Shown piece after piece: positions 29,976 to 49,238 of a DNA stretch of 64,000 nt. The stretch lies in assembly GCA_052325505.1 (NCBI GenBank), contig JBKQUS010000097.1, positions 14,066-78,065 on the forward strand, written 5' to 3'. Position 1 is the first letter of the stretch. Each line of letters opens with the position of its first letter. Under the pieces are notes generated by a model. It ran no database searches. It saw nothing but the letters and a program-made list of their open reading frames with translations, and was not told where the DNA came from. The translations under genes and the position numbers were made by a program. The stretch is from Limisphaerales bacterium (GTDB taxonomy: Bacteria > Verrucomicrobiota > Verrucomicrobiia > Limisphaerales > Palsa-1400).

Positions 29976-30143
29976 TTAATGGAGACTCGTTGCAACCAAC
30001 ACACCGACCACCGCGCCATAAACCATCGTGATGATGGGATGGCTGGTGAGCGGACAGGCACCGGTGGGACAACCCACGAGTTTATACCAACCGAGGCCGA
30101 AACCACCGCCAACAATGATGCCAATCACGATGCGGAAAATCAT
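29976..30143 (-). CDS. Small two-TM membrane protein with CPTGAC motif
   Basis: The product is MIFRIVIGIIVGGGFGLGWYKLVGCPTGACPLTSHPIITMVYGAVVGVLVATSLH. The internal ATG at 30143 is chosen because the track's N-terminal extension would overlap the trx gene. Confidence 0.45.
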   Translation of the reverse strand: MIFRIVIGIIVGGGFGLGWYKLVGCPTGACPLTSHPIITMVYGAVVGVLVATSLH

Positions 30144-30147
30144 AGGT

Positions 30148-30489
30148 TCAAGCGGTGACGTTTGAATTTGCCGCCTTCTCCAGCCAGGCTTTGAAAGGGC
30201 GCGGGCCGTAAAACCCTTCAACTTGATCCACTGGCTCCCCGCCGCGAAATACCATCAAGGTTGGCACGCTGCGGATTTCATATTCGCCCGCCAGCGTGGC
30301 GGCATCGTCTATGTTCACCTTGGCGAACTTCACCTTGCCGGCAAAGTCGGCGGCGAATTGTTCCAACAGAGGCGCGAGCATCCGGCACGGCCCGCACCAT
30401 GGCGCGTAAAAATCCACCAACACCGGGCCGGTGGCGCGCAGCACTTCGGCTTCAAAATTGGTTTCGGTCAGTTCGATGATGTTTTTCAT
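30148..30489 (-). CDS. trxA: Thioredoxin
   Basis: The 113-aa product is MKNIIELTETNFEAEVL...VDFYAPWCGPCRMLAP...VPTLMVFRGGEPV. The Arg-rich N-terminal extension of the track ORF (to 30693) is rejected. Confidence 0.9.
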   Translation of the reverse strand: MKNIIELTETNFEAEVLRATGPVLVDFYAPWCGPCRMLAPLLEQFAADFAGKVKFAKVNIDDAATLAGEYEIRSVPTLMVFRGGEPVDQVEGFYGPRPFKAWLEKAANSNVTA

Positions 30490-30689
30490 GGCAAAATACA
30501 TCGTTGCTACCATTACCGAACCACGAGCACCGGAAAAGTTACAAACAATCTGCCGCGCTTCCGTTTGAGAATCTTGAAGTCTGCTAAACGCGAGCCAGGC
30601 CACCTTTGAGCAGCCGGGTGGTTCAGCCTCCTCGCTTTTGCTCGAAATATGCCTTGAGCGGAGTGAATCGCGTCGCCGGCAAGGACGCT

Positions 30690-33044
30690 TCATCGCAACT
30701 TTAACCGGGCGAACAACAGAACTTTCACCCAGTCGAGGCAGAAAAAATACGCCGCGCCCACGCCCACAACGCCGAGCAGGATCGAAGGACTGATTGCCGG
30801 CATGAAAATGCCTTCCAGCGCGAGCAGCGCGGTGACGCCGAGGCCCACCGCCGAACTGCCCACGAGGTAACGCCCCGGCCGCGACTGCCAGAAATGCCCG
30901 CGCTCTCGTAACATATAGACTCCTGCCTGCGAACTGAAAATCAGCGTGGCAAAGGTCAGCGTCTGCAATGTTCGCGGATTCAGCCGGAGGGCATAATGGC
31001 CATAGAGGAAGACACCGAGCGAGAAGACCAGTTTGAACGTGGCGAGCACCGTGGCGGCCAGCAAAATGCCGCGCGTATTCCAGCGGTTCGGCTGACGCGA
31101 GAATTCCATCCGGTCGGTCGAAATGGACATGGTGAGGAAATCATTGAGAAACAGAATGAGCACCATCAGCAGCGGCGTGAGCGGCCGGTGCTGCGTCACG
31201 AGAAAGCCAATGACCAGCAGCGCCATCATCTCGATTTTCTTCACCAGCATGGCGAGCGTGTAGGTGATGATGCGCTGGAAAACGCGCCGGCTGGTTTCGA
31301 TTGCTGGCATCACGCCGCCCAGACCCGGCGAGGTCAGCACCATCGCCGCAGCCGCTTTCGCCACATCCGTCGCGTTGGCGACAGCCACGCCCGCTTCGGC
31401 CTGACGCAACGCCGGGGCGTCGTTGACGCCGTCGCCGCTCATGCCGACCACCGCGCCGCGCTTCTGGAAGGCGCGCACCAGCCTGATTTTGTCTTCCGGG
31501 AACACCCCGGCAAACACGCCGCACTCGAGCGCGTCACCGCCGAGGTCTCCGTGCAGTTTTTCGGACGAACACACGCTCCCTGGAATGCCCACCTGTTCGG
31601 CCACGGCGCGCGCCGTGATCGCGTTGTCGCCCGTCACCATCACCGTGCGCACACCGGCGTCGCGGATGGCGCCCACGACGGCCTTTGAATTGTCCCGCAC
31701 GGCGTCGGCGAGGCCGAGCAGACCTGCGAGCTGCAACACTTTTTCATCGCCGACCGCCACCGCCAGCACCCGCTGCCCGTGCGCGGCCATGCCTTCGGCC
31801 TGCGATTGCCAGACGGATTCCGCCGCGCCAGTGAGTTTCGCGACGACAGCGGGCGCGCCCTTCACATAATGCCGTGAGCCGTGTTCCTCGCGATACACCG
31901 CCTCGGCGCGCTTGGTGACCGGATCGAAAGGCTTGAAGTCCATCCGCTCGTTTTCGCCATCGTGCCAGCCACGGTCGGAAGCGGCCTTGATGATCGCACC
32001 GTCCACCGGGTCTTGTCCGGCTGGATCGCTGGCCAGTGCGGCGGCACGCACCAGATCGGTTTCGGAAAAGCCTGGGGTTGTCCAAAGCGCCGTCACCGTG
32101 GCCTCGTTGCGCGTCAGGGTTCCGGTTTTGTCGCTGCACAACACGGTCATCGAGGCGATGTCATGCAAGGCGCTGAGGCGCGTGATCAACACCCCATGCT
32201 TGGACAGCTCCAGCGATCCCAGCGCGGCCGCGAGCGTGAATGTGGCGGGCAAAGCCACGGGAATGGAGGCGAGGAGAATGGTGAGCAGCAAAGGCAGAAC
32301 ATATCCGAGGGACATGCCTTGCACATGCGCGTAGCCCGTGACGATCACCACCATCGCCGCATTGACCACAAACAGATTCTTCACCACGCCCACAATCTCT
32401 TGTTCCTGCCGGTTGGCCGATCCCGCCGTGCGGACGAGTTCGGCGGTCTTGCCGAAGAAGGTATGCGCGCCGGTGGCGGTGATTTCACCGGTGGCTTCAC
32501 CGCCGCGCACCATTGAGCCGGCATAAGCGGTTTTGCCCGCCTCGACCGACACGGCGGCCGATTCGCCGGTGAGCGCCGACTGGTCCACCAGCAGCGCCCC
32601 TTCGTCCATGCGCACATCCGCCGGCACGATGGTGCCTTGGCGCAAATGGATGACATCGCCGGGCACGAGTTCCTCAGCCCGCAGCGTCGTCCAGTCACCG
32701 TCGCGGCGCACCCGCGCCTGCACATGAAGTTGCTGGCGCAGGAGCGCCAGCGCCTTCTGCGCGCGGCCTTCCTGCAACAGGCTTATTACCGCATTCAACA
32801 CGAGCAATCCTCCGATTACCACCGCTTCCACGTTCTCGCCGAGGAAGAACTGGATGATAATCGTCGCTTCAAGAAGCCAGGGGATGGGTGCCCAAAATCG
32901 TTTAAGAAACGTCTTCAACGGGTGGGCCTTTTCCTCAACCACCGCATTGGGGCCAAACTGCTTCAGCCGCGCCTGGGCCTCGGCAGTGGTCAGGCCACGG
33001 CGGTTGTTGCTCGCATTGGTTGCAGTCAAATTTTGAGCGGGCAT
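30690..33044 (-). CDS. P-type ATPase, type IIIA (plasma-membrane H+-ATPase-like), not a CPx heavy-metal pump
   Basis: Motifs found are TGES (ALTGESAAV), DKTGTLT, MVTGDNAITA and GDGVNDAPAL. TM4 reads SIPVALPATFT, with no CPC/CPH. No N-terminal HMA domain is present. The N-terminus is GLTTAEAQARLKQFGPN. Confidence 0.8.
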   Translation of the reverse strand: MPAQNLTATNASNNRRGLTTAEAQARLKQFGPNAVVEEKAHPLKTFLKRFWAPIPWLLEATIIIQFFLGENVEAVVIGGLLVLNAVISLLQEGRAQKALALLRQQLHVQARVRRDGDWTTLRAEELVPGDVIHLRQGTIVPADVRMDEGALLVDQSALTGESAAVSVEAGKTAYAGSMVRGGEATGEITATGAHTFFGKTAELVRTAGSANRQEQEIVGVVKNLFVVNAAMVVIVTGYAHVQGMSLGYVLPLLLTILLASIPVALPATFTLAAALGSLELSKHGVLITRLSALHDIASMTVLCSDKTGTLTRNEATVTALWTTPGFSETDLVRAAALASDPAGQDPVDGAIIKAASDRGWHDGENERMDFKPFDPVTKRAEAVYREEHGSRHYVKGAPAVVAKLTGAAESVWQSQAEGMAAHGQRVLAVAVGDEKVLQLAGLLGLADAVRDNSKAVVGAIRDAGVRTVMVTGDNAITARAVAEQVGIPGSVCSSEKLHGDLGGDALECGVFAGVFPEDKIRLVRAFQKRGAVVGMSGDGVNDAPALRQAEAGVAVANATDVAKAAAAMVLTSPGLGGVMPAIETSRRVFQRIITYTLAMLVKKIEMMALLVIGFLVTQHRPLTPLLMVLILFLNDFLTMSISTDRMEFSRQPNRWNTRGILLAATVLATFKLVFSLGVFLYGHYALRLNPRTLQTLTFATLIFSSQAGVYMLRERGHFWQSRPGRYLVGSSAVGLGVTALLALEGIFMPAISPSILLGVVGVGAAYFFCLDWVKVLLFARLKLR

Positions 33045-33254: not shown

Positions 33255-33284
33255 TTGACAGTATTTAGCAAATATGCTAAATAC
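33255..33284. promoter_or_regulatory. Divergent promoter region with ArsR/SmtB-type operator (10-4-10 perfect inverted repeat)
   Basis: The -35 TTGACA (33255-60) is separated by 17 nt from TAAATA (33278-83). The inverted repeat GTATTTAGCA-AATA-TGCTAAATAC spans 33261-33284. The ATG at 33290 is only 6 nt past the -10, so the transcript may be leaderless. Confidence 0.6.
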
Positions 33285-33289
33285 TAAAC

Positions 33290-33592
33290 ATGATGACCGC
33301 TGCAAAAGCTGAATACACCGCCAAGGCCCGCATCATCAAGGCGCTCGCCCATCCGACGCGCCTGTTCATCGTGGATGAGCTGTCGCGCGGCGAACGCTGC
33401 GTGTGCCAACTCAAGGACATGATCGGCGTGGAAATGCCCACGGTGTCGCGGCATCTTGGGGTGCTCAAAAGCGCGGGAATTCTGGAGGACGAAAAGCGCG
33501 GCTTGCAGGTTTTTTACCGGCTGCGGGTGCCGTGCGTTTTGAACTTTTTCAAATGTGTCGAGGCGGTTCAGCGTAATGGAAAGTGCCCATAG
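33290..33592 (+). CDS. arsR: ArsR/SmtB family metal(loid)-responsive repressor
   Basis: It has the wHTH segments ALAHPTRLFIVDEL and VSRHLGVLKSAGIL, plus an alpha-3 CVC site (ERCVCQL). Confidence 0.9.
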   Translation: MMTAAKAEYTAKARIIKALAHPTRLFIVDELSRGERCVCQLKDMIGVEMPTVSRHLGVLKSAGILEDEKRGLQVFYRLRVPCVLNFFKCVEAVQRNGKCP

Positions 33593-33610
33593 AGTTTTTT
33601 TTGCCAGCAT

Positions 33611-33630
33611 ATTTAGCGGATTAGCTAAAT
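33611..33630. promoter_or_regulatory. Second operator-like inverted repeat sharing the ATTTAGC half-site
   Basis: ATTTAGC-GGATTA-GCTAAAT overlaps the ATG (33629) of the FmdE-like gene. Confidence 0.45.
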
Positions 33631-34381
33631 GAAAACGAATTGGAATATGAAAGGCAAAGTGTTGGTCGTGCTGATTGGCACGGCGATGCTCTTGGACGGC
33701 TGCGTTACCGCGCCGCCCGCCGCCCATGAAACCGCCGACTGGTATTATCCGGGCTGGATGGCTCACGCGCCTTATGCGCCGGTGTTTGAAGTGCGCGACA
33801 CCGAAAGCAGTCTCGGCCCTTATGCGAGCCAGACCAAGACCATCACGCTCAAAGACCTCGTCAAGATGCACGGCCACCCGTGCGACGGGCTTGTCACCGC
33901 CGCGTGTGCGTTGAGCGTCGGACTCCGCGAACTGTATCCCGACGGTGTGATTGACCGCACGGACACCGGCGGCATCTGCAACAACTCGCCTTGCTACGGC
34001 GACGTGGTGGAATATCTGACCGGCGGACGCATCCGCTTTGGCACGCAGAAAATTGATCCCAGCCTGGGCAACGAATTTATCCTGTATCGCTTCTCCACGC
34101 ATCAGGCGGTCAAGGTGGCGTTGAAACCGGGTGTGTTTCCCACCGAAGTCACCCGGCTGGAAACGCAGATTCGGCGCGGCGATTTCTCCGTGGCCGATAT
34201 GCGGCGCTGTCAACAATTGGAATGGGATTACGCCCGCAATCTGCTGCAACATCCGTTGGCCGAATCTTTCACGGTTACGCCGCTGGCCAATTTCACCTGG
34301 CAGCCCGATGCCTACGAACATCTCGGCAAGCGCGGCGACATCATCAACAAGAACGTGTTGGGACATCCTCCGGCGCAATGA
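33629..34381 (+). CDS. FmdE-like domain protein, exported/lipoprotein-like (putative metal-binding)
   Basis: The N-terminal hydrophobic segment ends in DGC (VLVVLIGTAMLLDGC). The HGHPCDGLVTAACAL motif is reminiscent of FmdE-family HGH.C.G. This is a motif-level call only. Confidence 0.5.
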   Translation: MKTNWNMKGKVLVVLIGTAMLLDGCVTAPPAAHETADWYYPGWMAHAPYAPVFEVRDTESSLGPYASQTKTITLKDLVKMHGHPCDGLVTAACALSVGLRELYPDGVIDRTDTGGICNNSPCYGDVVEYLTGGRIRFGTQKIDPSLGNEFILYRFSTHQAVKVALKPGVFPTEVTRLETQIRRGDFSVADMRRCQQLEWDYARNLLQHPLAESFTVTPLANFTWQPDAYEHLGKRGDIINKNVLGHPPAQ

Positions 34382-34391
34382 AGCGATTTCC

Positions 34392-35528
34392 ATGAATTCC
34401 CAACTTGAAACCAAAATTGAGTCCAGTGACCGGTCAAATAAAACGACCGCCTGCGGCTGCGCCGTCCCGTCGAAATCGCCCACCACTGCGATCTCCACCG
34501 TTACCAGCAAACCTGGCTGGCGCAAATATCTGCCGTGGGGTGTTGCGGGATTGGTGATGTGGTGGCTGGTGTATCGTAGTCTAGCGCCGGCGAGCCACTG
34601 GATCACTTACGAACTGCTGGGGCTGGAACCCGGTCGCCGCTTCAGCCTGGCGGTGGAGTTCTTCGTGTTTGAAATTCCCAAGGTGCTGCTGCTGCTGACG
34701 CTGGTTGTATTCGTCATCGGGATCATCCGTTCGTTTTTCACGCCGGAGCGGACGCGGCGGATTCTTTCGGGCAAAAGGGAATTTGTGGGGAGCATTCTGG
34801 CGGCCTTGCTGGGCGTGGTCACACCGTTCTGCTCCTGCTCGGCTTGCCCGCTGTTCATCGGGTTCGTGACGGCGGGCGTGCCGCTGGGCGTCACCTTTGC
34901 GTTTCTGGTTTCCGCGCCGATGGTGAACGAAGTGGCGCTGGTGCTGTTGTTCGGCTTGTTCGGCTGGAAAATCGCGGCCATTTATTTGAGCACCGGCTTC
35001 ATCATCGCCTTGGTCGCCGGCTGGGTGATTGGCCGGTTGCACATGGAAAAATACATCGAGCCGTGGGCGCTTCAGGCGTCGGTGGGCATAACCGCCGAGG
35101 AGCCGTCGCTGACCTGGCCGGAGCGCATCCGTTTCGGACGCGACGCCGTGCGCGACATCGTGGGGCGGGTCTGGGTGTATGTGACGCTGGGCATCGGCGT
35201 GGGCGCGGGCATCCACGGCTATGTGCCGGACGGTTTGCTGGCGTCGTTCATGGGCAAGGGCGTGTGGTGGTCCGTGCCGGTGGCCGTGCTCATTGGCGCG
35301 CCGCTGTATTCCAACGCAGCGGGCATCATTCCCATCGTGCAGGCGCTGCTAGGCAAAGGCGCGGCGCTGGGCACGGTGCTGGCATTCATGATGTCGGTCA
35401 TCGGCATTTCGACGCCGGAAGCGGTCATTCTGCGCAAGGTGATCCAATGGCCGCTCATCCTGACCTTTTTCGGCATCGTGGCGGTGGGGATCGTCATCGT
35501 CGGGTATCTTTTTAATTTTATCATGTGA
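34392..35528 (+). CDS. UPF0718/ArsP-like permease
   Basis: It is a multi-TM protein with the TPFCSCSACPLFIGF motif. From memory, the ArsP family has TPFCSC. The ATG at 34392 (MNSQLETK) is preferred over the track start at 34131. Confidence 0.7.
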   Translation: MNSQLETKIESSDRSNKTTACGCAVPSKSPTTAISTVTSKPGWRKYLPWGVAGLVMWWLVYRSLAPASHWITYELLGLEPGRRFSLAVEFFVFEIPKVLLLLTLVVFVIGIIRSFFTPERTRRILSGKREFVGSILAALLGVVTPFCSCSACPLFIGFVTAGVPLGVTFAFLVSAPMVNEVALVLLFGLFGWKIAAIYLSTGFIIALVAGWVIGRLHMEKYIEPWALQASVGITAEEPSLTWPERIRFGRDAVRDIVGRVWVYVTLGIGVGAGIHGYVPDGLLASFMGKGVWWSVPVAVLIGAPLYSNAAGIIPIVQALLGKGAALGTVLAFMMSVIGISTPEAVILRKVIQWPLILTFFGIVAVGIVIVGYLFNFIM

Positions 35529-36763
35529 AAAGCCAGTCATTCTTCCACTTGAAAACGATTATGAAATTAGACGCAACGCAAATCGGCCAGTTCACCCGCC
35601 GTTACGCAAAATGGCTTGTGGTGATCCTGCTCGCGGGCATTGTGATTTATCGGGTGAGATTTGCGCCAATTCCCGTGATTGCGCAAAAGGTCACCAATGG
35701 TTCCATCGTCGCCGAAGTCATGGGCACCGGCACGCTCAACACGCATTTCAAGGCGGCAGCCAGTCCGAAAGCCTTTCAAGGCCGGCTGGTTCAGGTGTTG
35801 GCGGACCAAAATGACTTTGTGACCAACGGCCAGTTGCTCGCGGTGCTGGATGACAGCGAGCAACGCCGCCAGGTGGAAGTCGCGCAGGCCACGCTGAACG
35901 CCGCGCAAGCCACCGACCGCCAGGTGCGGGATGATGAGGCGCGGGCGCAGGCGGTCTTGAAACTGGCGCAGATTGTGTTCAACCGGGACGCCGCCCTGTT
36001 CACCAACAAAATCATTTCCGCTTCCGACTACGACACCGACGTGGAGCAAATGCGCGTGGCGGAATCGGGACTGGCCGTGGCACAATCGGCCATCGTCGCC
36101 GCCGACCGCCAGCAAGTCGTTGCCGACAAGCAACTCGCCTATCAGCGGGAACTGCTGGCTGACACGCTCATCCCCGCGCCGTTCAACGGCCTGGTGATCA
36201 AACGCAATCTCGACTCCGGCGACGTGGTGACGCCCGGTGCGTCCATCCTTGATCTCGTGGACACGAACGAGATTTGGGTTTCGGCCTGGGTGGACGAAAC
36301 GGCGATGTCGCCGCTGGCGACAAATCAACCGGCCCGCGTGGTATTCCGTTCCGAGCCGGACAAATCGTATCCGGGCCGCGTGGCGCGGCTCGGTCGCGAA
36401 ACCGATCCGGAGACCCGCGAGTTTGTGGTGGATGTGTTGGTGCGCGAGTTGCCCGCCAACTGGACCATCGGCCAGCGCGCTGAAGTCTATATCGAGACGG
36501 GCCGGGCCGCGAACGCGCTGGTGTTGCCCGCAAAATTCCAGTTGTGGCGCGAGGGCCGGCCCGGCGTGCTGGTGAACGAGCGCGGCACAGCGCGCTGGCG
36601 CGACGTAAAGCTTGGCCTGCGCGGACGCGAAACGGTTGAAGTTGTTGCCGGGCTCACGGCGGGCGAGCAGGTCGTGACACTGGCAGCGGGTGAAAACGCG
36701 CTCACACTGGAAGGGCGGCGCGTGCGGGCCACTGTGCCGCCAAACAAAGTTGGATCGCCATGA
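35525..36763 (+). CDS. HlyD/MacA-type periplasmic adaptor
   Basis: It has an N-terminal TM (WLVVILLAGIVIY), a coiled-coil region and a beta-barrel C-terminus. The GTG at 35525 overlaps the upstream stop; ATG 35561 is the alternative start. Confidence 0.8.
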   Translation: MKSQSFFHLKTIMKLDATQIGQFTRRYAKWLVVILLAGIVIYRVRFAPIPVIAQKVTNGSIVAEVMGTGTLNTHFKAAASPKAFQGRLVQVLADQNDFVTNGQLLAVLDDSEQRRQVEVAQATLNAAQATDRQVRDDEARAQAVLKLAQIVFNRDAALFTNKIISASDYDTDVEQMRVAESGLAVAQSAIVAADRQQVVADKQLAYQRELLADTLIPAPFNGLVIKRNLDSGDVVTPGASILDLVDTNEIWVSAWVDETAMSPLATNQPARVVFRSEPDKSYPGRVARLGRETDPETREFVVDVLVRELPANWTIGQRAEVYIETGRAANALVLPAKFQLWREGRPGVLVNERGTARWRDVKLGLRGRETVEVVAGLTAGEQVVTLAAGENALTLEGRRVRATVPPNKVGSP

Positions 36764-37971
36764 ACCTCGCCGCGCAAGACATTCGCCACAACCTCGCCCG
36801 CTTCGGCCTGACCGCCTGCGGCATCGGCCTGCTGCTGATGATTGTGCTCGGCATGGGCGGTATTTATCGGGGGCTGGTGTATGAGGCGACGCTGCTGGTA
36901 GACCGCGTGAACGCCGACTTGTGGGTGGTGCAACGCAACACGCGCGGCCCGTTTGCCGAAGTTTCTTCCGTGCCGGCGAACGTCGAAAACCGCGTGCTGG
37001 CCGTGCCCGGCGTGGCATCGTCGCGGCGGTTTGTCTATTGGACCATCCAACGCGAGCTCGCCGGCCGGCCCTTGCGCCTAGCCATCCAGGGTTTGGTCTG
37101 GCCTTACGACAACGGCGATTGGCTGCCGCTGGCGACGGGCCGGCCGCTGGGCCAGGCGCATTATGAAATGGTCGCCGACCGCAGCCTGGGCCTCCCACTC
37201 GGCGAGCGGGTCAAATTGGGCAAGGATTTTTACACGGTCGTCGGCGTCACCCACGGCATGACCTCCGCCTCCGGTGATGGCATGGCCTTCTTCTCGCTGC
37301 CCGACGCGCAGGCGATCCAGTTCGACGAACCGGGTGAAGCCATCCGATTGCAGCGCAACACCCGCGCCGCACAAATGCAGTCACAAGACCTCGGCCAGCA
37401 ACAACCCGGCCTGCTGACGCGCGTCTCCGGCCTCACGGCAAATCTGCCTGCCATCCTGCCGCCGACGGTCAGCGCGGTGCTGGTGAAGCTGGCACCCGGT
37501 GCGGATGCGCAAGCGGTCATCACCACCATCCAAGGCTGGCCGGACTTGACGGTCTATACGAGCGATCAACAGTGTGACCTGCTGGTGCGCGGGTTCGTGG
37601 ACCGCTCGCGGCGGCAGTTGGGATTGTTCCGGGCCATCCTGGTGGTCGTTTCCACCATCATCCTGACGCTCATCCTCTACACGCTCACGCTCGACAAAAC
37701 GCACGACATCGCAATGCTCAAGCTCATGGGCGCGCGTAACCGGGTCATCATCGGCCTGATATTGCAGCAGGCGCTTCTGCTCGGCGCAATCGGTTACGGC
37801 CTGGCGGCGTTGCTCGGGCACTGGCTGTTTCCATTGTTCCCGCGTCGCGTCGTCATCACCGCGCCGGATTTCTGGCTGCTGGCGCTGGTCGTCGCGGGCA
37901 TCGCCGTTTTCGCCAGCCTGTTGGGGATTTGGAAGGCCATGCGAATTTCACCGAACACCGTCCTGTCATGA
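36760..37971 (+). CDS. ABC transporter permease, FtsX/MacB-type
   Basis: It is 403 aa with an N-terminal TM, a large periplasmic domain and a C-terminal FtsX-like 3-TM bundle. ATGA overlaps occur at both ends. Confidence 0.8.
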   Translation: MNLAAQDIRHNLARFGLTACGIGLLLMIVLGMGGIYRGLVYEATLLVDRVNADLWVVQRNTRGPFAEVSSVPANVENRVLAVPGVASSRRFVYWTIQRELAGRPLRLAIQGLVWPYDNGDWLPLATGRPLGQAHYEMVADRSLGLPLGERVKLGKDFYTVVGVTHGMTSASGDGMAFFSLPDAQAIQFDEPGEAIRLQRNTRAAQMQSQDLGQQQPGLLTRVSGLTANLPAILPPTVSAVLVKLAPGADAQAVITTIQGWPDLTVYTSDQQCDLLVRGFVDRSRRQLGLFRAILVVVSTIILTLILYTLTLDKTHDIAMLKLMGARNRVIIGLILQQALLLGAIGYGLAALLGHWLFPLFPRRVVITAPDFWLLALVVAGIAVFASLLGIWKAMRISPNTVLS

Positions 37972-38717
37972 ACTCCACCGCCAATCCCTCCACGCCCGCA
38001 CTTGAGGCCATCGGCCTGACCAAGATTTATGGCAGCGGCAATACGGAAGTCGTGGCCATGAACGACGTGACGCTGCGCATCGAGCGCGGGGAAGTGATCG
38101 CGCTGCTGGGGCCGAGCGGCGCGGGGAAAACCACGCTGCTCACCGCGCTGGGCCTGATCAATCCGCCCACGGCCGGGCGCATCACGATGGGCGGGGAACC
38201 GGTCATGGACGGGCCGCACGGATTGGTCAACCTGGCTGCGTTCCGACGCAAGCATCTGGGCTTCGTGTTTCAAAAGGCAAACCTGATTCCGTTTTTGAAC
38301 GCGGCGCAAAATGTCCAGGTGGCGCTGGAAATCAATGATGTCCTTCCCCGCCTGGCCCGGCAGCGCGCGCTGGAACTGATGGAATATCTTGGCGTGGCCG
38401 ACCGCGCCAGCCATCTGCCCAACGCGCTTTCCGGCGGCCAGCAACAGCGCGTCGCCGTGGCCCGCGCGCTGGCCAACGAGCCGAGCTTGATTCTGGCCGA
38501 CGAACCCACCGCCGCGCTGGACGGCCATCGCGGACGCCAGGTGATGGAACTGTTCCGCAAAGTGGCGCACGAACGCGGCGCGGGCGTCATCGTCGTGACG
38601 CACGATCACCGGGCGCTGGATGTGTTCGACCGCGTGGTGGAAATGGAAGACGGGCGGTTGAAATCAACGCCGGCAAACGCTTTGAACACCAAAACACAAG
38701 ATAGGAAAACAACATGA
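37968..38717 (+). CDS. ABC transporter ATP-binding protein (MacB/LolD-like)
   Basis: Walker A is GPSGAGKTT, the signature is [15 protein letters not shown], and Walker B is LILADEPT. The start is ATG 37968. Confidence 0.9.
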
Positions 38718-38944
38718 AAATACAAATCCTCGGCACCGGCTGCGCCAAATGCAACGTCCTGACGATGGCCGCAGAAAAGGCCGCGCAAACGCTTGGCCTG
38801 GCTTACGAACTGGAAAAAGTCACCGACCTGAAGCAAATCATGGCGTTCGGCGTGATGACAACGCCCGCGCTGGTTGTGGACGGCAAGGTGAAGGTGAGCG
38901 GCAAAGTGCCGTCCGTGGAAGAAATCAAAAAACTGCTCGCGTGA
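38714..38944 (+). CDS. Small thioredoxin-fold protein (redox-active disulfide protein 2 type)
   Basis: The 76-aa product is [16 protein letters not shown]...TPALVVDGKV. Confidence 0.8.
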   Translation: MKIQILGTGCAKCNVLTMAAEKAAQTLGLAYELEKVTDLKQIMAFGVMTTPALVVDGKVKVSGKVPSVEEIKKLLA

Positions 38945-38965
38945 ACCGTAAGAACAAAACCGATT

Positions 38966-39448
38966 ATGAAAACACCCCTGAAACTCGCCATTGTGGCCGC
39001 GCTTGTCGTGACCGTGGTTGCTGCCGTAACCCTTAAACAGAACAAATTAAAAGCCCCTGCTGAAACCGACGCCGTGGCCGTGACCGCAGTCACTAACGCG
39101 CCAAGGGAAAACACCGGCGGGAAGACCGCGCCCGTTGCCAACGCCAAGCTTCCCAAACTCCTCGATCTCGGCGCGGGCAAATGCATCCCGTGCAAAATGA
39201 TGTTCCCGGTGCTGGACGAGTTGAAAAAGGAATACGCCGGTAAGTTGAACGTGGAATTCATTGACGTGTGGGAAAATCCCGACGCCGCGAAGCCATACGG
39301 CATCGAGGTGATTCCCACGCAGATTCTCTACGACGCAGACGGCAAGGAACTGTTCCGCCACGTCGGCTTTTTTGCGAAGGAAGACATTCTGGCCAAGTGG
39401 AAGGAATTGGGCGTGAATTTCACGGACAAATCAAATAACGGCAAGTGA
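38966..39448 (+). CDS. Membrane-anchored/exported thioredoxin-like protein (TlpA/ResA-like)
   Basis: It has an N-terminal anchor (LKLAIVAALVVTVVAAV) and a CxxC site, GAGKCIPCKMMFPVL. Confidence 0.8.
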   Translation: MKTPLKLAIVAALVVTVVAAVTLKQNKLKAPAETDAVAVTAVTNAPRENTGGKTAPVANAKLPKLLDLGAGKCIPCKMMFPVLDELKKEYAGKLNVEFIDVWENPDAAKPYGIEVIPTQILYDADGKELFRHVGFFAKEDILAKWKELGVNFTDKSNNGK

Positions 39449-39463
39449 GGCTTTGGCCTGCGC

Positions 39464-39703
39464 ATGAGATCAAACACCAAAATCCTTCTGGCCGGCGCAT
39501 TGTTGATTGCCCTGTTGGCGTGGTCATCGGCATGGCGCGGATCGCGTTCCGACAGCGCGGGCCAGAGTTGCGGAGCTTGCTGTCCGTTCCTTTCCGCGCC
39601 GAATGCAATGCGGATGCCCTCCGGCACAAACGCAATAACAACCAACCGCACATCCAGTCCGTCATCCATCACGAACTTTACGCCATTACCCACACAACCA
39701 TAA
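39464..39703 (+). CDS. Hypothetical small anchored Cys-rich protein (CGACCP motif)
   Basis: The 79-aa ORF fills an otherwise unexplained 260-nt gap in a tightly packed operon. It has an N-terminal TM (ILLAGALLIALLAWSSAW) followed by SCGACCPF. The C-terminal half is low-complexity. Confidence 0.3.
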   Translation: MRSNTKILLAGALLIALLAWSSAWRGSRSDSAGQSCGACCPFLSAPNAMRMPSGTNAITTNRTSSPSSITNFTPLPTQP

Positions 39704-39708
39704 CCACC

Positions 39709-40083
39709 ATGAACTCAAAACCGCAATGCACTTGTTCGTCCGCGCCCAAACTCATTTTTCCGTGTTCAGGCGCTTCCGACGTGGGCGGCCTTGCTGACCT
39801 CGCCGCACGGCAAATGACTCTCGACCAAACCGGCAAGATGTATTGTCTGGCCGGCATCGGCGGACGCGTCAACACCATCATCGAGACGACCAGGGACGCC
39901 GCGAAAATTCTGGTGATTGACGGCTGCCCGCAGGAATGCGCCCGCAAAACGATGGAGCAAGCCGGATTCACCGGGTTCCAACACTTGAAGCTGGCCAGCC
40001 TGGGTCTTCACAAGGGTTCCAGCCCGGCCACGGACGAAAATATCCGCCTCGTTGCCAACCGAGGTGCTGAACTTCTCGCGTGA
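39709..40083 (+). CDS. DGC-domain putative zinc-binding protein
   Basis: Motifs are CTCSSAPKLIFPCSGASDVG and VIDGCPQECARK. The start is ATG 39709. Confidence 0.65.
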   Translation: MNSKPQCTCSSAPKLIFPCSGASDVGGLADLAARQMTLDQTGKMYCLAGIGGRVNTIIETTRDAAKILVIDGCPQECARKTMEQAGFTGFQHLKLASLGLHKGSSPATDENIRLVANRGAELLA

Positions 40084-40092
40084 GGTCGCTTT

Positions 40093-40554
40093 ATGAAACA
40101 AATCTTTCTTTGGTTCGTAATGTTGCTGGTCGTGGCGGCGGTTTCCGTCGTGGCGGCAGACAGTCCCACCCTCAAGCCGTCCGAGCCTGCGCCCGTCGCG
40201 ACCAACGCGCCGGGCCAGCAAGTCATCGCGTATTATTTTCACGGCACCGTCCGCTGCGAAACCTGCCTGAAGATCGAGCAACAGGCCAAGGCGGTGATTG
40301 AGCGGAAATTTAAGGCAGAACTGGACGCACACCGGTTGGTGTTCAAACCGGTGAATTACGACCTGCCGGAGAATGCTCATTTTCTGTTGGATTACAAATT
40401 GCCGTGCCCTTCGCTGGTGCTGGTCCGGCAGCCAGGCGGCAAGGACGACAAATGGACGCTGCTCGGCGGCACCTGGCAATTGGTCGAAGACCCGGTGAAG
40501 TTCAATGCCTACATCGAAACCGAAGTGAACAAGTTTTTGAGCATTCCCCAATAA
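40093..40554 (+). CDS. Exported thioredoxin-like-fold CxxC protein (possibly ArsF-like family)
   Basis: It has a signal peptide (MKQIFLWFVMLLVVAAVSVVA) and the motif FHGTVRCETCLKIE. The family name is recalled from annotation practice and is not verified. Confidence 0.55.
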   Translation: MKQIFLWFVMLLVVAAVSVVAADSPTLKPSEPAPVATNAPGQQVIAYYFHGTVRCETCLKIEQQAKAVIERKFKAELDAHRLVFKPVNYDLPENAHFLLDYKLPCPSLVLVRQPGGKDDKWTLLGGTWQLVEDPVKFNAYIETEVNKFLSIPQ

Positions 40555-40578
40555 CCACCGCGGCATCACGATCAAGCC

Positions 40579-41277
40579 ATGGAACAACTCTTCACCGCAC
40601 TTGGCCACGCCGTCGAGGGTGCGCCGCTGATCGCGCTGGCGGCGGCGATGGCGTGGGGCGTTTTGAGCATCCTTTTAAGCCCCTGCCATCTGGCGAGCAT
40701 CCCGCTGATTGTGGGATTCATCAGCGAACAAGGCAAAGTCACGGTGCGGCGGGCGTTCTGGACATCGGTTCTTTTCGCAGTGGGCATTCTCATCACCATC
40801 GCGGCCATTGGCGCAATCACAGCGGCGGCGGGCCGGATGCTGGGTGATGTGGGGCGGTATGGAAATTATTTTGTGGCGGTGATTTTCTTTGTCGTCGGGC
40901 TGCATCTGCTGGGCGTGATTCCGATGCCGTGGTCAGGATCGGGACAAGTAGGCATGAAGCGGAAAGGATTGCTCGCCGCGTTCGTGCTTGGCTTGGTGTT
41001 TGGCATCGCGCTCGGCCCCTGCACATTTGCCTACATGGCCCCGATGCTGGGGGTGACTTTCAAACTGGCCAAGACCGCGCCACTTTACGGAGTGGCCTTG
41101 TTGGTGGCGTATGGCGTGGGGCATTGCGCCGTGATTGTGGCGGCGGGGACTTCGACGGAACTGGTGCAACGCTTTCTGAACTGGAACGAGCAATCGAAGG
41201 GCGTGGCCGTGGTGAAAATCATTTGTGGCATCCTTGTCCTACTTGGCGGTGTATGGCTCATCTATTCCGCGCTGTGA
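40579..41277 (+). CDS. ccdA: CcdA/DsbD-family transmembrane thiol:disulfide electron transporter
   Basis: It has 6 TM segments. The two conserved Cys motifs are LSPCHLASIP and ALGPCTFAYMAP. Confidence 0.8.
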   Translation: MEQLFTALGHAVEGAPLIALAAAMAWGVLSILLSPCHLASIPLIVGFISEQGKVTVRRAFWTSVLFAVGILITIAAIGAITAAAGRMLGDVGRYGNYFVAVIFFVVGLHLLGVIPMPWSGSGQVGMKRKGLLAAFVLGLVFGIALGPCTFAYMAPMLGVTFKLAKTAPLYGVALLVAYGVGHCAVIVAAGTSTELVQRFLNWNEQSKGVAVVKIICGILVLLGGVWLIYSAL

Positions 41278-41335: not shown

Positions 41336-42100
41336 TCAGCGGCTAATCAGATCCGCCAAATTCCGAGCAACCAACCCGAAGCCCAACAGAACCACGCACC
41401 AGGCAAAGCCCCGACGCAAGACGCCGGCGGATAATTTTTTCGCGAGCACCGCGCCGATAATCATTCCCACCATCGCCGCCAGCAGAAAGCCGAGCGTGAG
41501 CCGCCAGTCAAAGTTTGCATAGCGCAGTTGGCCGACCAGGCCGCCGACGCAATTCACCGCGATGATCGCCAGCGACGTGCCGATGGCCGGCTTCATTTCC
41601 AGCCCGGCCAACAAAACGAGTGCCGGCAGAATCAGAAATCCGCCGCCCACACCCAGAAACCCCGTCAGCACGCCCACGGCAACGCCGACGACGAGACAGC
41701 GCACCGGACGACATTCCTGCGCCGCCGCCTTCGCCTCGCCTTTGCACAGCAGCCTGATGCCGACGACGAGCATCAGCGCGCCAAAGAGAAACATCAGCAT
41801 CGGCGCGGAAACCAGATGCGTCAATTTCGCGCCAACAAATGCGCCGGCCATTCCGCTCACGGAAAAGAACGCCGCCGCCCGCCAATCGAAAGCGCCTTGC
41901 CGCAGATTGAGCAGCGTGCCAAGCGCGCTCGTGCCACCCACGATGACCAGCGACATGCCCACGGCTTGTTGGGCGGGGACTTTGGCAACATAAACCAACA
42001 CCGGCAGGGTGATGATTGAACCGCCGCTGCCGAGCAGTCCCAGCGAAAGCCCAATCAACGCGGCCAGGGTCAGGGCGAAACTGAACGTCAGTAAATCCAT
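41336..42100 (-). CDS. TauE/SafE (DUF81) family anion exporter
   Basis: It is 254 aa with 7-8 TM segments. The repeated halves are Gly-rich (LLGSGGSIITLPVL, FLGVGGGFLILPAL). Confidence 0.8.
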   Translation of the reverse strand: MDLLTFSFALTLAALIGLSLGLLGSGGSIITLPVLVYVAKVPAQQAVGMSLVIVGGTSALGTLLNLRQGAFDWRAAAFFSVSGMAGAFVGAKLTHLVSAPMLMFLFGALMLVVGIRLLCKGEAKAAAQECRPVRCLVVGVAVGVLTGFLGVGGGFLILPALVLLAGLEMKPAIGTSLAIIAVNCVGGLVGQLRYANFDWRLTLGFLLAAMVGMIIGAVLAKKLSAGVLRRGFAWCVVLLGFGLVARNLADLISR

Positions 42101-42552
42101 GGAATGAAACGCCGAACGCGTCGCTCATAGCCCGCGTAATTCGGGAATTGCTGCCGCAGCCAACGTTCTTCGTGCCGGGCTTTGGCATCAATGAAAACAC
42201 CCAGCACCAGGGAAGCGACCAAGTCCGGCCAGCTTTGAAAGATGAGCGCCGACCCGACGGCGGCACAAAAAACGGAAGTGTAAAGCGGATGCCGAATCAA
42301 AGCGTAAATGCCATGCTGGACAAACTGCGCCGTTGCAGATGGCTTGGGAAAGGGCGTCAGGTTTCGTCCCAATGCCAGCGTCCCAGCGAGGCCACAAATC
42401 GTGGAGGCCACGAGAAAGACCAAACCGAAAAGGAAATGTGGAAGCGACTTCGATGTCGCGCGACCGGTGAGATCCAGCCCGGCAATGGCCAATAGCAGCA
42501 GGAATTGTCCCACCACCCACCAACCGCCGCGTTGGACAAAGCCGTTATTCAT
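42088..42552 (-). CDS. Membrane methyltransferase, isoprenylcysteine carboxyl methyltransferase (ICMT)/PEMT-like family
   Basis: Motifs are GIYALIRHPLYTSVF and RHEERWLRQQFPNYAGYERRVRRFIP. The internal ATG at 42552 is chosen because the track start at 42663 would overlap the upstream gene by 119 nt. Confidence 0.7.
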   Translation of the reverse strand: MNNGFVQRGGWWVVGQFLLLLAIAGLDLTGRATSKSLPHFLFGLVFLVASTICGLAGTLALGRNLTPFPKPSATAQFVQHGIYALIRHPLYTSVFCAAVGSALIFQSWPDLVASLVLGVFIDAKARHEERWLRQQFPNYAGYERRVRRFIPWIY

Positions 42553-43147
42553 GGCGGCGGGCGAGAATTTGCACCACCGCGCCGCGCCCCGTGTGGCCAT
42601 CGCCTTCGACAACATCGCGTTCAAATTCGCGGCCAACCAGCAATTCCAATCCCGCAAGTTCATCCCGTAGGCCAGCCAGAGTCATGAGGAGTTCAGAAGA
42701 TTTTGGGCCGCCAGTCCCCAAAGCCAATTCTGCCAGAGTGTAGGCTTCAAGAACGAACACTCCGCCGGACCGCAAACCACGCACCGCTTGAGCGTGAACT
42801 TTGCGGCGAATTGCGGGCGGCAAATGGGCAAACGTGGCCACGATTCCCGCCCAAGCTCCCGGCTCGATGGTGAAGTTTCCAAGGTCAGCAAGCACTGTTT
42901 CTATTTCAACGCCGCGTGCCGCCGCGAGTTGCCGGGCTTTGGCTAAACCGGCTGCGGATTGATCCACCGCCGTCACCCGATGGCCGAGGGTTGCGAGGTG
43001 AACAGCGTTGCGTCCCTCACCTTCCGCGAGACAAAGCACCGGCCCGACGGGAATCTGTGACGCCATTTCAGCCACGAAAGAATTTGGTGTTTCGCCGTAA
43101 ATATATTGTGGCGCGGCAAAGCGGTTGTCCCAAAATTCGGCGTCCAT
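42545..43147 (-). CDS. Class I SAM-dependent methyltransferase (TehB-like size and layout)
   Basis: The N-terminus is FWDNRF...YIYGETP. The SAM motif I is VLCLAEGEGRNAVHLATLGHRVTAVD. Confidence 0.7.
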   Translation of the reverse strand: MDAEFWDNRFAAPQYIYGETPNSFVAEMASQIPVGPVLCLAEGEGRNAVHLATLGHRVTAVDQSAAGLAKARQLAAARGVEIETVLADLGNFTIEPGAWAGIVATFAHLPPAIRRKVHAQAVRGLRSGGVFVLEAYTLAELALGTGGPKSSELLMTLAGLRDELAGLELLVGREFERDVVEGDGHTGRGAVVQILARRHE

Positions 43148-43150
43148 GAT

Positions 43151-43516
43151 TCAATTACTGTTCACAATTTTTTTCGCCCGGCCATAAGAGCCGAGGTTGA
43201 AGGCATTCGTGTAGCCCAAGGTTTTCAATTTGCTTTTCGCCATGCCGCTACGCATCCCGCTCGCGCAGTGCAGCAGCAGCCCCTGACTTTTGTCCTTCAC
43301 GCGCTTTGGCAGAGCGGTTTCAATTTCGTCGAGTGGGATGTTGATGGCCTTGGCCAGATGCCCGGAGTTGAATTCGCCGGGGCTGCGCACATCAATCACC
43401 AGCGCGCCGTTTTTAAGTTTTTCAAGTGCGTCTTTAGCCGAAATCTGACCGGATTTTTTTATCATAAAAAAGACCGTGACGACTGCCGCGATGATTAAAG
43501 TGGTTGTCCAATTCAT
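43151..43516 (-). CDS. Membrane-anchored rhodanese-domain sulfurtransferase
   Basis: It has an N-terminal TM (TTLIIAAVVTVFFMI) and the rhodanese active-site loop HCASGMRSG. The alternative start is 43558. Confidence 0.8.
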   Translation of the reverse strand: MNWTTTLIIAAVVTVFFMIKKSGQISAKDALEKLKNGALVIDVRSPGEFNSGHLAKAINIPLDEIETALPKRVKDKSQGLLLHCASGMRSGMAKSKLKTLGYTNAFNLGSYGRAKKIVNSN

Positions 43517-43520
43517 AGGG

Positions 43521-43739
43521 TCAATCCTTGTCGGTATCATCATCCGCTGCTTCACCAAGTTGTTTTCTAAAAAAATTCTTTACCGGGCAATGGCCGGTGA
43601 TGCCGGAGACAACCAAATACGCACTGACGAGAAACGTCAGCAGCAGCCACCATTGGCTGACCGCTTGCGACAGCCAGACACTGATGAGAATCAGTGCGCC
43701 GGCCAGAATCCAAACCAAGCTGTTCAACAACCTGTTCAT
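43521..43739 (-). CDS. DUF2892 (YgaP C-terminal-like) membrane protein
   Basis: The 72-aa product is WILAGALILISVWL...WWLLLTFLVSAYLVVSGITGHCPVKNFF. It lies adjacent to the rhodanese gene, giving a split YgaP-like layout. Confidence 0.65.
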   Translation of the reverse strand: MNRLLNSLVWILAGALILISVWLSQAVSQWWLLLTFLVSAYLVVSGITGHCPVKNFFRKQLGEAADDDTDKD

Positions 43740-47321: not shown

Positions 47322-47687
47322 ATGCGTGAGTTCATGAACATCACCAAGGCGCTGGCCGATGAAAGCCGCGTCCGCACGCTGCTGGCCTTGCGCCAGGGCG
47401 AGTTGTGCGTCTGCCAGATCACCGAGTTGTTCGATTTCGCCCCATCCACCATATCCAAGCACCTGTCCATTCTCTTTCAGGCCCGGCTGGTTGAATCGCG
47501 CAAGGATGGCCGCTGGATTTACTACCAGTTGCCGGGGGAAAACGCTTCAGAGGTAGTTCGTGAGGCGCTCGACTGGATCGAAAAGTCCCAGGCCAAAGCC
47601 CCGCAAGTTTTGGAAGACAACAAAAAGCTCAAAAAAATACTAAAGCAAGACCCTGCTGAATTATGCAAACGCCAATGCAAAAAATGA
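47322..47687 (+). CDS. arsR: Arsenic-responsive repressor ArsR
   Basis: Motifs are [11 protein letters not shown] and [24 protein letters not shown]. It is the first gene of the ars operon. Confidence 0.9.
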
Positions 47688-48127: not shown

Positions 48128-48132
48128 CGTTT

Positions 48133-48558: not shown

Positions 48559-48573
48559 AAACAGGAAGACACA

Positions 48574-48864: not shown

Positions 48865-48871
48865 ACAAAAT

Positions 48872-49237: not shown

Positions 49238-49238
49238 A

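Follow-up and report, generated by a model that had tools for sequence, protein, structure and literature searches.

An ArsR-headed operon combining an FmdE-fold lipoprotein, an ArsP_1-family permease, a MacB-type pump and a predicted thiol relay on a conjugative-element-like island of a Limisphaerales bacterium

CcdA and thioredoxin, together with redox-active disulfide protein 2, have been described as determinants of ars operons, in a survey that also noted two size classes of the exporter ArsP (Castillo & Saier 2010, PMC2963123), and the triad of ars-operon genes was later named ArsEFG (Chen, Zhang & Rosen 2019, as cited in PMC9144182). As to transport, ArsP exports methylated trivalent arsenic, MAs(III), and trivalent roxarsone, Rox(III) (review PMC6205960), and of the more than 700 transporters surveyed in ars operons only five, judged to be minor, were of the ATP-binding cassette (ABC) type (Yang et al. 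2015, PMC4435449). A CSC motif is a signature of ArsP-superfamily exporters; in the SAO locus the efflux protein SaoE accompanies the thioredoxin-like SaoT and the MerB-like SaoL, with organometallic compounds as proposed substrates (Haft & Gwadz 2022 preprint). A full-text literature search retrieved no paper linking an FmdE lipoprotein or a MacB-type pump to ars operons. Here we describe an operon that carries an FmdE-fold lipoprotein, an ArsP_1-family permease, a MacB-type pump and a set of thiol-disulfide proteins under an ArsR regulator, located at positions 33290–41277 of a 64,000-nt stretch from a Limisphaerales bacterium (Verrucomicrobiota; GenBank assembly GCA_052325505.1, contig JBKQUS010000097.1, positions 14,066 to 78,065 of the forward strand). 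This whole stretch is referred to as the window, and all coordinates are given on it.

Organization and control of the operon

The region 33290–41277 is confirmed as a genuine, tightly packed operon. Eleven well-supported genes plus one small open reading frame (ORF) lie on the + strand, with junctions of 36, 10, 32, −4, −4, −4, 21, 15, 2, 9 and 24 nt in gene order, the largest intergenic gap being 36 nt and the remaining joins being shorter or 4-nt overlaps. The tight co-directional block described by a first-pass annotation of the same letters, made without database searches, was thus borne out, every feature being found on the + strand where it had been placed. In hidden Markov model (HMM) searches the families suggested at that stage, ArsP_1, FmdE, DGC, Thioredoxin_3/TIGR00412 (ArsE) and NF040494 (ArsF), scored above their curated cut-offs, as did ArsR, HlyD, MacB_PCD/FtsX, ABC_tran, Thioredoxin and DsbD_TM; the ArsG model was missed.

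The first gene (33290–33592, +) encodes a 100-aa ArsR/SmtB metalloregulator (NF033788, 87.7 bits, cut-off 55; PF01022, 50.2 bits, cut-off 22), whose alpha-3 site ERCVCQL aligns with ELCVCQI of the ArsR heading the canonical ars operon of the window; a C-x-C at this site is present in 46 of 76 ArsR homologues from related loci. The second-best NCBIfam match of the protein was BigR, at 60 bits against a cut-off of 155.

Just upstream, a perfect 11-nt inverted repeat, AGTATTTAGCA-aata-TGCTAAATACT (11-4-11 palindrome; 33260–33285, +), stops 4 nt before the arsR ATG and is overlapped by a promoter-like TTGACA (33255–33260, +), making it a candidate ArsR operator; the corresponding candidate target DNA is AGTATTTAGCAaataTGCTAAATACT. 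The repeat occurs in a single copy in the 64-kb window even when up to 3 mismatches are allowed, was matched in 0 of 100 shuffles, and is kept in the closest genome, L005 (here and below, L-numbers denote compared loci or genomes and P-numbers homologous proteins of this analysis). The best -10-like hexamer, TAAATA, lies at 33278–33283 and the arsR ATG at 33290, a spacing of TTGACA, TAAATA and ATG suggesting that the arsR transcript is leaderless or nearly so. A consensus promoter scan did not call TTGACA 33255–33260 as a promoter, and a simple promoter/terminator scan gave fewer matches than shuffled sequences and no convincing internal terminator. In the window, the Rfam scan returned zero matches and the tRNA scan found none.

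A lipoprotein, two putative exporters and a predicted thiol relay

Behind arsR, the second gene (33629–34381, +) encodes a 250-aa FmdE-fold lipoprotein (PF02663, 52.7 bits) with the lipobox LLDGC and the signature HGHxCDG...C122...D125. Its AlphaFold2 (AF2) model (predicted local distance difference test score, pLDDT, of 84) matched 2gvi, 3d00 and 2glz with a Foldseek probability of 1.00, and significant PDB matches were confined to these three structural-genomics FmdE-like entries; PDB searches by sequence with this protein and with the ArsF and DGC proteins described below gave no matches. The fold and the HxHxC...C signature are those of the FmdE/FwdE-like proteins 2gvi, 3d00 and 2glz, but the present protein is an exported lipoprotein of a non-methanogen host, set among ArsR, permease and thioredoxin genes, and no fmd/fwd genes were found in the window or in the 71 FmdE loci considered below. 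The subfamily comprises 317 detected homologues, 60–90% identical across the phyla of the Planctomycetota–Verrucomicrobiota–Chlamydiota (PVC) group. Residues H81, H83, C85, D86, C122 and D125 are invariant among 68 sequences; C194 is confined to the PVC group and missing in 38 distant homologues. A three-thiol As(III) site formed by C85, C122 and C194 was considered and dropped, C194 not being universal and the invariant set being of the His2Cys2 plus Asp type. Six members of the subfamily (P0066, P0079, P0086, P0088, P0089 and P0097) have a DUF1805 domain (PF08827) inserted or added between the lipobox and the FmdE domain.

The adjacent gene (34392–35528, +) encodes a 378-aa permease of the ArsP_1 family (PF03773, 234.5 bits, covering profile positions 4–294 of 294), carrying a CGC at the N-terminus and, inside the membrane, the motif TPFCSCSACP at residues 145–154. 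With the ArsP of Campylobacter jejuni it shares the Pfam family at a strong score, a vicinal-cysteine motif in a membrane helix and a place in ArsR-controlled clusters. Its membership is supported at superfamily level only, and it differs from ArsP in the extra N-terminal CGC tail and in being always paired with Trx3 (see below) and often with the FmdE lipoprotein; its scores also fall below the cut-offs of SaoE (129 vs 325 bits) and SO_0444 (80 vs 300 bits). The pairing of a CSC exporter of the ArsP superfamily with a small thioredoxin-like protein, as well as a MerB-like domain encoded in sister operons, recalls the SAO locus. However, selenoproteins, an uptake ABC transporter and double-cubane partners are all absent here, every Sao model was missed by far, and the host is an environmental verrucomicrobial metagenome-assembled genome, whereas SAO carriers are strict anaerobes.

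Three genes joined by 4-nt overlaps then encode a putative tripartite pump, made of a 400-aa periplasmic adaptor of the membrane fusion protein (MFP) type with one N-terminal transmembrane (TM) helix (35561–36763, +; TIGR01730, 147 bits, cut-off 94.9; HlyD_D23 and HlyD_3), a 403-aa MacB-type permease with about 4 TM helices (36760–37971, +; PF12704 MacB_PCD and PF02687 FtsX) and a 249-aa ABC ATPase (37968–38717, +; PF00005, 114.6 bits), so that a MacB core plus FtsX permease, a HlyD-type adaptor and an ATPase are present in a single operon. This composition is that of the MacAB-TolC/DevBCA type VII systems, and some sister loci add an outer-membrane-factor-like gene. In contrast to these systems, the ATPase is a separate polypeptide, the permease belongs to a distinct, highly conserved 403-aa family that is often found inside operons with ArsR, ars genes or the thiol relay, and the scores are far below the equivalog cut-offs (MacA 94 vs 342, MacB 199 vs 966, DevC 38.6 vs 290, DevA 222 vs 296 bits). 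The best NCBIfam matches of the ATPase were of the DevA, MacB and LolD types, every one under its equivalog cut-off. In the locus L001, on the source contig, the public gene call at 13132–14344 splits the MacB-like permease into products of 326 and 85 aa; this is probably a gene-caller artefact, since the L001 locus encodes a protein 100% identical over the aligned part, and the window, as well as L002, has one 403-aa ORF.

The last part of the operon encodes thiol-disulfide proteins. Trx3 (38714–38944, +) is a 76-aa thioredoxin-like protein with a CAKC motif, assigned to the MTH895/ArsE family (TIGR00412, 112.4 bits, cut-off 62; PF13192, 101.9 bits) and predicted to be cytoplasmic, no hydrophobic segment being present. 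TrxP (38966–39448, +), of 160 aa with a CIPC motif (PF00085, 48.4 bits), is predicted to be a periplasmic thioredoxin anchored in the membrane by residues 5–23. At the end of the operon lie an ArsF-family protein of 153 aa with a CETC motif and a signal or anchor sequence (40093–40554, +; NF040494, 99.2 bits, cut-off 60) and a 232-aa CcdA-type transmembrane thiol-disulfide conduit (40579–41277, +; PF02683, 43.3 bits, cut-off 27.1), with the cysteines of SPC36 and GPC148. The AF2 model of ArsF (pLDDT 69 overall, 70–95 in most core blocks) has a beta-alpha-beta-alpha-beta-beta-alpha core, with the CxxC starting helix 1 and invariant prolines before strand 3, and its top PDB matches were all thioredoxins or thioredoxin-like proteins. 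This core order and these matches support a thioredoxin fold for the CETC protein, and no flavin or nitroreductase domain was seen in the AF2 model or among the fold matches. An identical protein, from a metagenome-assembled genome of Limisphaerales, is named 'nitrophenyl compound nitroreductase subunit ArsF family' at NCBI. On the ArsG model NF040495, the CcdA-type protein reached 50.5 bits against a cut-off of 200, compared with 275 bits for a true ArsG of another locus, and was rejected as an ArsG equivalog on this score.

Beside CcdA, TrxP and ArsF are both candidate extracytoplasmic acceptors, each with an N-terminal hydrophobic segment and a CxxC. Domain content and predicted topology thus support a complete cytoplasm-to-periplasm thiol relay composed of Trx3, CcdA and TrxP/ArsF, as the first-pass annotation had proposed. 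Its further claim that the relay accompanies two efflux systems also stood, the ArsP_1 permease and the MFP-MacB-ABC pump being encoded in the same operon, and so did its identification of the polytopic CcdA-type conduit and of a DGC protein. Three of the four thioredoxin-fold CxxC proteins that it had counted, those with CAKC, CIPC and CETC, were recovered by HMM or model, and the fourth, a CGACC peptide, was not. Its statement that such proteins are annotated as ArsF and ArsG in ars islands held in that NCBIfam gives the MTH895/ArsE and ArsF family names here, but failed for CcdA, which is not ArsG.

The CGACC peptide corresponds to the small ORF (39464–39703, +), 79 codons for a TM helix followed by SCGACCPF. 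It was ruled out as a thioredoxin, matching instead the TM-CxxCC N-terminal module of long-form ArsF: the same TM plus GxCCP module is fused to the ArsF domain at the N-termini of six 176-aa homologues (P0288, P0295, P0299, P0308, P0320 and P0334). The ArsF alignment therefore identifies the small ORF as the N-terminal module of long-form ArsF, split from the short-form ArsF by the DGC gene. The one close relative in which the ORF is kept is L006 (72% aa identity); there, substitutions fall on the three codon positions 14/12/15, with no bias, and 16 of 39 changed codons are synonymous, vs 8–9 of 37 in the other frames. The case for a separate gene is weak, and the ORF may encode a stand-alone membrane peptide or be a remnant, possibly of recombination.

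The DGC gene itself (39706–40083, +) encodes a cysteine-rich protein of about 125 aa (PF08859, 93.4 bits, cut-off 27) without TM helices, presumably cytoplasmic, with six cysteines including those of the CTC and DGC motifs; it gave no NCBIfam match. An alternative start at 39532 would yield a 183-aa product. This longer call was discarded, the extension being non-coding-like (9 synonymous vs 28 non-synonymous changed codons), and the ATG at 39706 is preferred because the longer call overlaps the small ORF and its extension looks non-coding.

As a whole, the set resembles the redox determinants of ars operons and ArsEFG in having an MTH895-type thioredoxin, an ArsF-family protein, a membrane protein of the DsbD/CcdA superfamily, ArsR control and linkage to ars genes. 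Nevertheless, the membrane protein is here of CcdA type instead of being an ArsG equivalog, an uninterrupted arsE-F-G order is missing, and the operon adds a second anchored thioredoxin, the DGC protein, the FmdE lipoprotein, the ArsP_1 permease and the tripartite ABC pump; what fold and topology indicate is a thiol relay across the membrane and not a nitroreductase plus a permease. Like the CcdA-ResA/DsbD systems, it combines a thioredoxin of the cytoplasm with a CcdA whose two cysteines are embedded in the membrane and with a thioredoxin anchored on the periplasmic side, but it is placed under a metalloregulator, has two periplasmic acceptors (TrxP and ArsF), is linked to efflux and has no partners of cytochrome c maturation.

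Recurrence in other genomes and the surrounding island

Neighbourhoods were compared at 71 FmdE loci, one genome per species being scanned, by tblastn with the window proteins and with recurrent neighbours, and counting co-directional genes only; the resulting numbers are minima because many loci are cut by contig ends. Trx3 was found at 57 of the 71 loci, an ArsP_1 permease of the short or long type at 47, ArsR at 40 and ArsF at 28, followed by Acr3 and true ArsG equivalogs (24 each), thioredoxin-type ArsC (21), TrxP (18), CcdA (15), DGC (14), ArsM (5) and the MacB pump (3). At least one relay part was present in 63/71 loci, and a canonical ars gene (acr3, arsC or arsM) in 29/71. The loci belong, among others, to Verrucomicrobiota, Kiritimatiellia, Lentisphaerota, Planctomycetota, Hydrogenedentota, Omnitrophota, Armatimonadota, Nitrospirota, Bacteroidota and one archaeon, and since the same partners turn up repeatedly beside the FmdE homologues of 71 genomes from many phyla, the clustering exceeds chance. 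In Bacteroidota the gene order is ArsR-Trx3-(rhodanese, OsmC or ArsF-ArsG)-permease-FmdE. Acceptor and conduit pairs in related loci are mostly ArsF followed by ArsG (24 adjacencies) or TrxP followed by CcdA (18), the ArsF-CcdA order of the window being a minority hybrid (3 adjacencies). Gene order and neighbourhood are thus conserved in other genomes, a point on which the first-pass annotation had made its proposal depend. That annotation had also found the association of the thiol-relay proteins with an FmdE-like lipoprotein and a MacAB-type pump unfamiliar: the association of FmdE with this neighbourhood turned out to be common, but its link with MacB is indeed rare.

As for the pump, the MacB-like permease family has more than 4286 homologues, uniform at about 403 aa, and in all four orthologous loci that were looked up (L076–L079) ArsR precedes the pump. 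The closest sampled one, L076, with an 87% identical MacB, reads arsR-arsM-MFP-macB-ABC-acr3-arsC, its ArsM scoring 315 bits against a cut-off of 263. L077 (69% MacB) has ArsR, a methyltransferase and the pump, without relay parts; L078 (68%) and L079 (67%) are headed by ArsR and have, before the pump, ArsP_1, Trx3, a reductase resembling P5CR, a fusion of thioredoxin with a MerB-like domain, and CcdA, with a flavin mononucleotide (FMN) reductase ahead of CcdA in L078 and behind the pump in L079. The fusion (L078 3879–5156, L079 3753–4958; also in L087, L092, L108, L109, L126 and L145) is membrane-anchored and usually lies just ahead of CcdA, in the slot held here by the FmdE lipoprotein. Its MerB-like domain reached 26 bits against a cut-off of 200, and a role as a periplasmic organometal lyase is possible. 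A metagenome scan added 80 further pump loci, 21 of them with enough flank, and 12 of these 21 carry ArsR, relay or ars partners: ArsR in 11, CcdA in 10, Acr3 and Trx3 in 8 each, ArsC and TrxP in 7 each, ArsM in 6 and the Trx-MerB fusion in 5. An outer-membrane-factor-like gene is near the pump in 4 sister loci, downstream of the ATPase gene in the representative one. The joint presence of pump and FmdE gene is, in these comparisons, one among several interchangeable arrangements. Near the pump and ars genes of L087 (9830–10498), and also in L136 and L151, we observed a 222-aa protein with an N-terminal ACCGPGCGC, a TM helix and a C-terminal GCGPGAGAGCCPK, without NCBIfam match.

The window matches a contig of a metagenome in ENA. 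Its first 22.6 kb are ordinary chromosome (a histidine kinase, a GH2 glycoside hydrolase and a 2898-aa GH94 protein), the last of these (13939–22635, −) combining GT2, glucoamylase-like and GH94 domains in a cyclic beta-1,2-glucan synthase-like arrangement. An island starts at about 23.6 kb with RadC, a resistance-nodulation-division (RND) pump with an outer-membrane efflux protein (OEP) gene, YgaP-like, DUF6132 and thioredoxin genes and a P-type ATPase, followed by the operon. Downstream lie TauE, ICMT-like, TehB-like methyltransferase and rhodanese genes and a sigma/anti-sigma pair of the extracytoplasmic function (ECF) type. Six kb downstream of the operon, a complete canonical arsR-arsC-arsC-arsD-arsA-arsC-acr3 cluster occupies 47322–52579 (+), with the ELCVCQI-bearing ArsR at 47322–47687, two ArsC of the low-molecular-weight protein tyrosine phosphatase (LMW-PTP) type at 47663–48127 and 48133–48558, ArsD at 48851–49237, ArsA at 49221–51047, a third LMW-PTP-type ArsC at 51056–51469 and Acr3 at 51479–52579, all on the + strand; an exact look-up of this Acr3 found no identical sequence on record. 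A TrwC-type relaxase/helicase (52917–55766, −) and a TrwB/TraD-type coupling protein (60790–62280, +) follow, RadC lying at about 23.6 kb. The segment from 23 to 62 kb looks like an integrative conjugative or mobilisable island with metal(loid) resistance cargo, and the operon, surrounded by resistance genes, the TrwC relaxase and the type IV coupling protein, appears on these grounds to be part of the cargo of a conjugative-element-like island.

Several further observations concern genes close to the operon. Convergent to it, the TauE, ICMT-like, TehB-like S-adenosylmethionine (SAM) methyltransferase and rhodanese genes occupy 41336–43516 (−); orthologues of the methyltransferase (63–64% identity) come directly after the MacB pump in L083 and L153, and in L080 the pump is separated from acr3 by an ICMT-like gene, so that, given these adjoining orthologues, the four genes may join the functional network of the operon. 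Divergent from it, a type IIIA 'plasma-membrane proton-efflux' P-type ATPase (30690–33044, −; TIGR01647, 642 bits, above cut-off) is an unusual partner for a resistance operon, and has orthologues beside the FmdE/relay module in L005 (93%) and L009 (65%). Small cysteine-containing membrane proteins (DUF6132 with GCPTGACP; a YgaP-like TM protein with GHCP) plus a thioredoxin are encoded on both flanks (29976–30501, −, and 43521–43739, −), DUF6132 and Trx being upstream also in L005. Finally, next to the relaxase is encoded a cysteine-rich protein of 168 aa whose zinc-binding domain is of the zf_CopZ type (55853–56359, −).

Proposed function and its alternatives

We interpret the locus as an ArsR-repressed accessory operon, carried on a conjugative-element-like island, that would detoxify a thiophilic metalloid, most probably arsenicals such as As(III), methylated As(III) and related species, an interpretation that we regard as evenly balanced between right and wrong. 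Observed are the genes that make up the operon and their families, the folds and predicted topology of the proteins, the operator, and a linkage to ars genes that is conserved. We infer from the sequence what the substrate is, which way electrons flow, what the FmdE and DGC proteins do and how the pump receives the metalloid, and with these every call of metalloid handling by the operon genes. In the proposed mechanism, ArsR, which has an alpha-3 Cys-x-Cys site, would bind the palindrome over the promoter, and the ArsP_1 permease would export the metalloid into the periplasm. CcdA-type proteins take up reducing equivalents from thioredoxins of the cytoplasm and pass them to exported proteins with a thioredoxin fold, and a transmembrane relay of reductant may run from Trx3 of the ArsE family through CcdA to the periplasmic TrxP and ArsF, which might keep extracytoplasmic cysteines, those of the FmdE lipoprotein included, reduced and metal-free. 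The lipoprotein, with its His2Cys2-type site, would act as a periplasmic factor that binds, handles or processes the metalloid, and the DGC protein could be a cytoplasmic cysteine-rich partner. MacB-type pumps expel periplasmic substrates via an adaptor and a TolC/outer-membrane channel; the MFP-MacB-ABC pump would take the species from the periplasm and expel it across the outer membrane via an outer-membrane factor encoded elsewhere. The adjacent RND cluster has an OEP gene.

Several observations weigh against this interpretation. The operon itself is without acr3, arsC and arsM, and the link with arsenic rests on its neighbours and on other genomes; the flanking TauE, rhodanese, TehB-like methyltransferase, Czc-type RND and P-type ATPase genes equally fit other substrates. 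The permease misses the equivalog cut-offs of every characterised subfamily, and its nearest named relatives, SaoE and SO_0444, are tied to other metals. The invariant His2Cys2 plus Asp set of the FmdE protein looks like an ordinary zinc site and not like a three-thiol As(III) site, and for this protein a role that depends on zinc, or one as an enzyme, has the same likelihood as the direct binding of arsenic. An FmdE homologue of 50% identity sits on a Sulfuricella plasmid without an ars context; the plasmid searches as a whole, which gave two FmdE matches lacking such a context, were uninformative. As regards the pump, no outer-membrane factor is encoded in the operon, its plasmid relatives at 40% identity are TetR-controlled, and 9 of the 21 well-flanked loci carry none of the partners, so that the pump is often, but not always, part of ars/thiol-relay operons.

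Among the alternatives, the operon might handle, instead of arsenic, a different soft metal or an organometal, such as Hg(II), organomercury, Cd, Sb or Cu(I), the ars neighbours reflecting the general clustering of resistance genes on mobile islands. This is unlikely, although the alpha-3 CVC is found also in Cd/Pb sensors of the ArsR family, the relatives of the permease include the SO_0444 Cu/Zn exporter besides SaoE, the thioredoxin-MerB-like fusion replaces FmdE in sister operons, the CC and CxxCC motifs are similar to mercury-transport motifs, and a zf_CopZ protein is encoded nearby, as are a P-type ATPase and an RND pump of the Czc type. Indeed, the recurrent co-directional linkage is to acr3, arsC and arsM and not to merA, merP, merT, copA or czc, the MerB-like domain falls far short of its cut-off, and the window showed no mer genes. 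That the operon serves to defend the cell from reactive species of sulfur, selenium or tellurium (persulfide, sulfite, selenite, tellurite), with a BigR-like regulator set over thiol repair and export, appears improbable: BigR is the next-ranking family for the regulator, but at a score far under cut-off, and the CVC of the protein is of the arsenic type. TauE, rhodanese, YgaP-like, small cysteine-containing DUF6132 membrane proteins and the TehB-like methyltransferase are all neighbours, methyltransferase orthologues stand behind the pump in two loci, and a rhodanese lies between Trx3 and permease in about 10 Bacteroidota loci; against this, rhodanese-fold proteins can be arsenate reductases, and genes of sulfur oxidation are found linked far less often than acr3, arsC and arsM.

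The operon might also be an ArsEFG system in the published sense, in which ArsE and ArsF reduce the nitro group of trivalent roxarsone and nitarsone, Rox(III)/Nit(III), and ArsG exports the aminoaryl arsenical, with FmdE, ArsP and the pump as extra exporters. ArsE together with ArsF reportedly carries out this nitroreduction, and the CcdA-like ArsG is said to be an efflux permease for aminoaryl arsenicals. Trx3 does satisfy the MTH895/ArsE model, the tenth gene the ArsF model, and the nitroreductase-subunit name is attached to a protein identical to the latter. We nevertheless hold this explanation to be decidedly improbable here, in view of the score of CcdA at about a quarter of the ArsG cut-off, of the true ArsG standing directly behind ArsF in 24 other loci, and of the three genes being not contiguous in the operon; ArsF is moreover modelled as an exported thioredoxin fold without a flavin or nitroreductase domain, and synthetic aromatic arsenicals would hardly be the main selective agent for a module widespread in environmental PVC bacteria and Bacteroidota. 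Scarcely credible, finally, is a chance juxtaposition of a housekeeping set for cytochrome c maturation or envelope disulfide reduction with unrelated transporters. CcdA with a membrane-anchored thioredoxin is the classical ResA/CcdA arrangement, and TrxP gave weak matches to ResA, DsbE and TlpA, all below cut-off, but the genes are tightly joined throughout, their combination is met again in other phyla and next to ars genes, and the location is a mobile island. None of the Pfam families for ccsBA/resBC or c-type cytochromes was found among the called genes within ±10 kb, which contradicts the co-location by chance that the first-pass annotation had named as the way in which its proposal might fail.

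Returning to the arsenical interpretation, what was already known concerns the relay in an ars context, the ArsP_1 family and the ArsE and ArsF family names. New are the FmdE-fold lipoprotein and the DGC protein as core members of the neighbourhood, the 403-aa MacB-type tripartite pump family recurrently wired into the ars/relay neighbourhood and, resting in part on the structural model, the suggestion that the ArsE/F/G-type gene architecture may be a transmembrane thiol relay. A broader extension, which we consider rather unlikely, is that PVC and related bacteria possess a dedicated envelope-spanning arsenical route, in which export by ArsP_1 would be followed by capture or transformation by the FmdE lipoprotein (or, in sister operons, by the thioredoxin-MerB-like enzyme), with a CcdA- or ArsG-fed thioredoxin relay that would maintain the lipoprotein thiols in an active state, and by ejection through the MacB-type pump. 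If this were true, ArsEFG systems in general would be transmembrane thiol-disulfide relays and not a soluble nitroreductase plus a permease.

In the usual picture, arsenic resistance stops at the inner membrane, with ArsB, Acr3 or ArsP. The operon and its relatives suggest that diderms of several phyla also employ, under arsenic-type regulation, thiol chemistry in the periplasm and an ABC pump that spans the outer membrane. Should this be confirmed, the biogeochemical cycle of arsenic would gain a step of periplasmic handling and a new class of pump, including the export of methylated species made by ArsM, and, the operon being on a conjugative-type island, the finding would bear on the spread of the trait. 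The FmdE-fold and DGC families would for the first time be placed in a physiological context, and the mechanism of ArsE, ArsF and ArsG would need to be re-examined.

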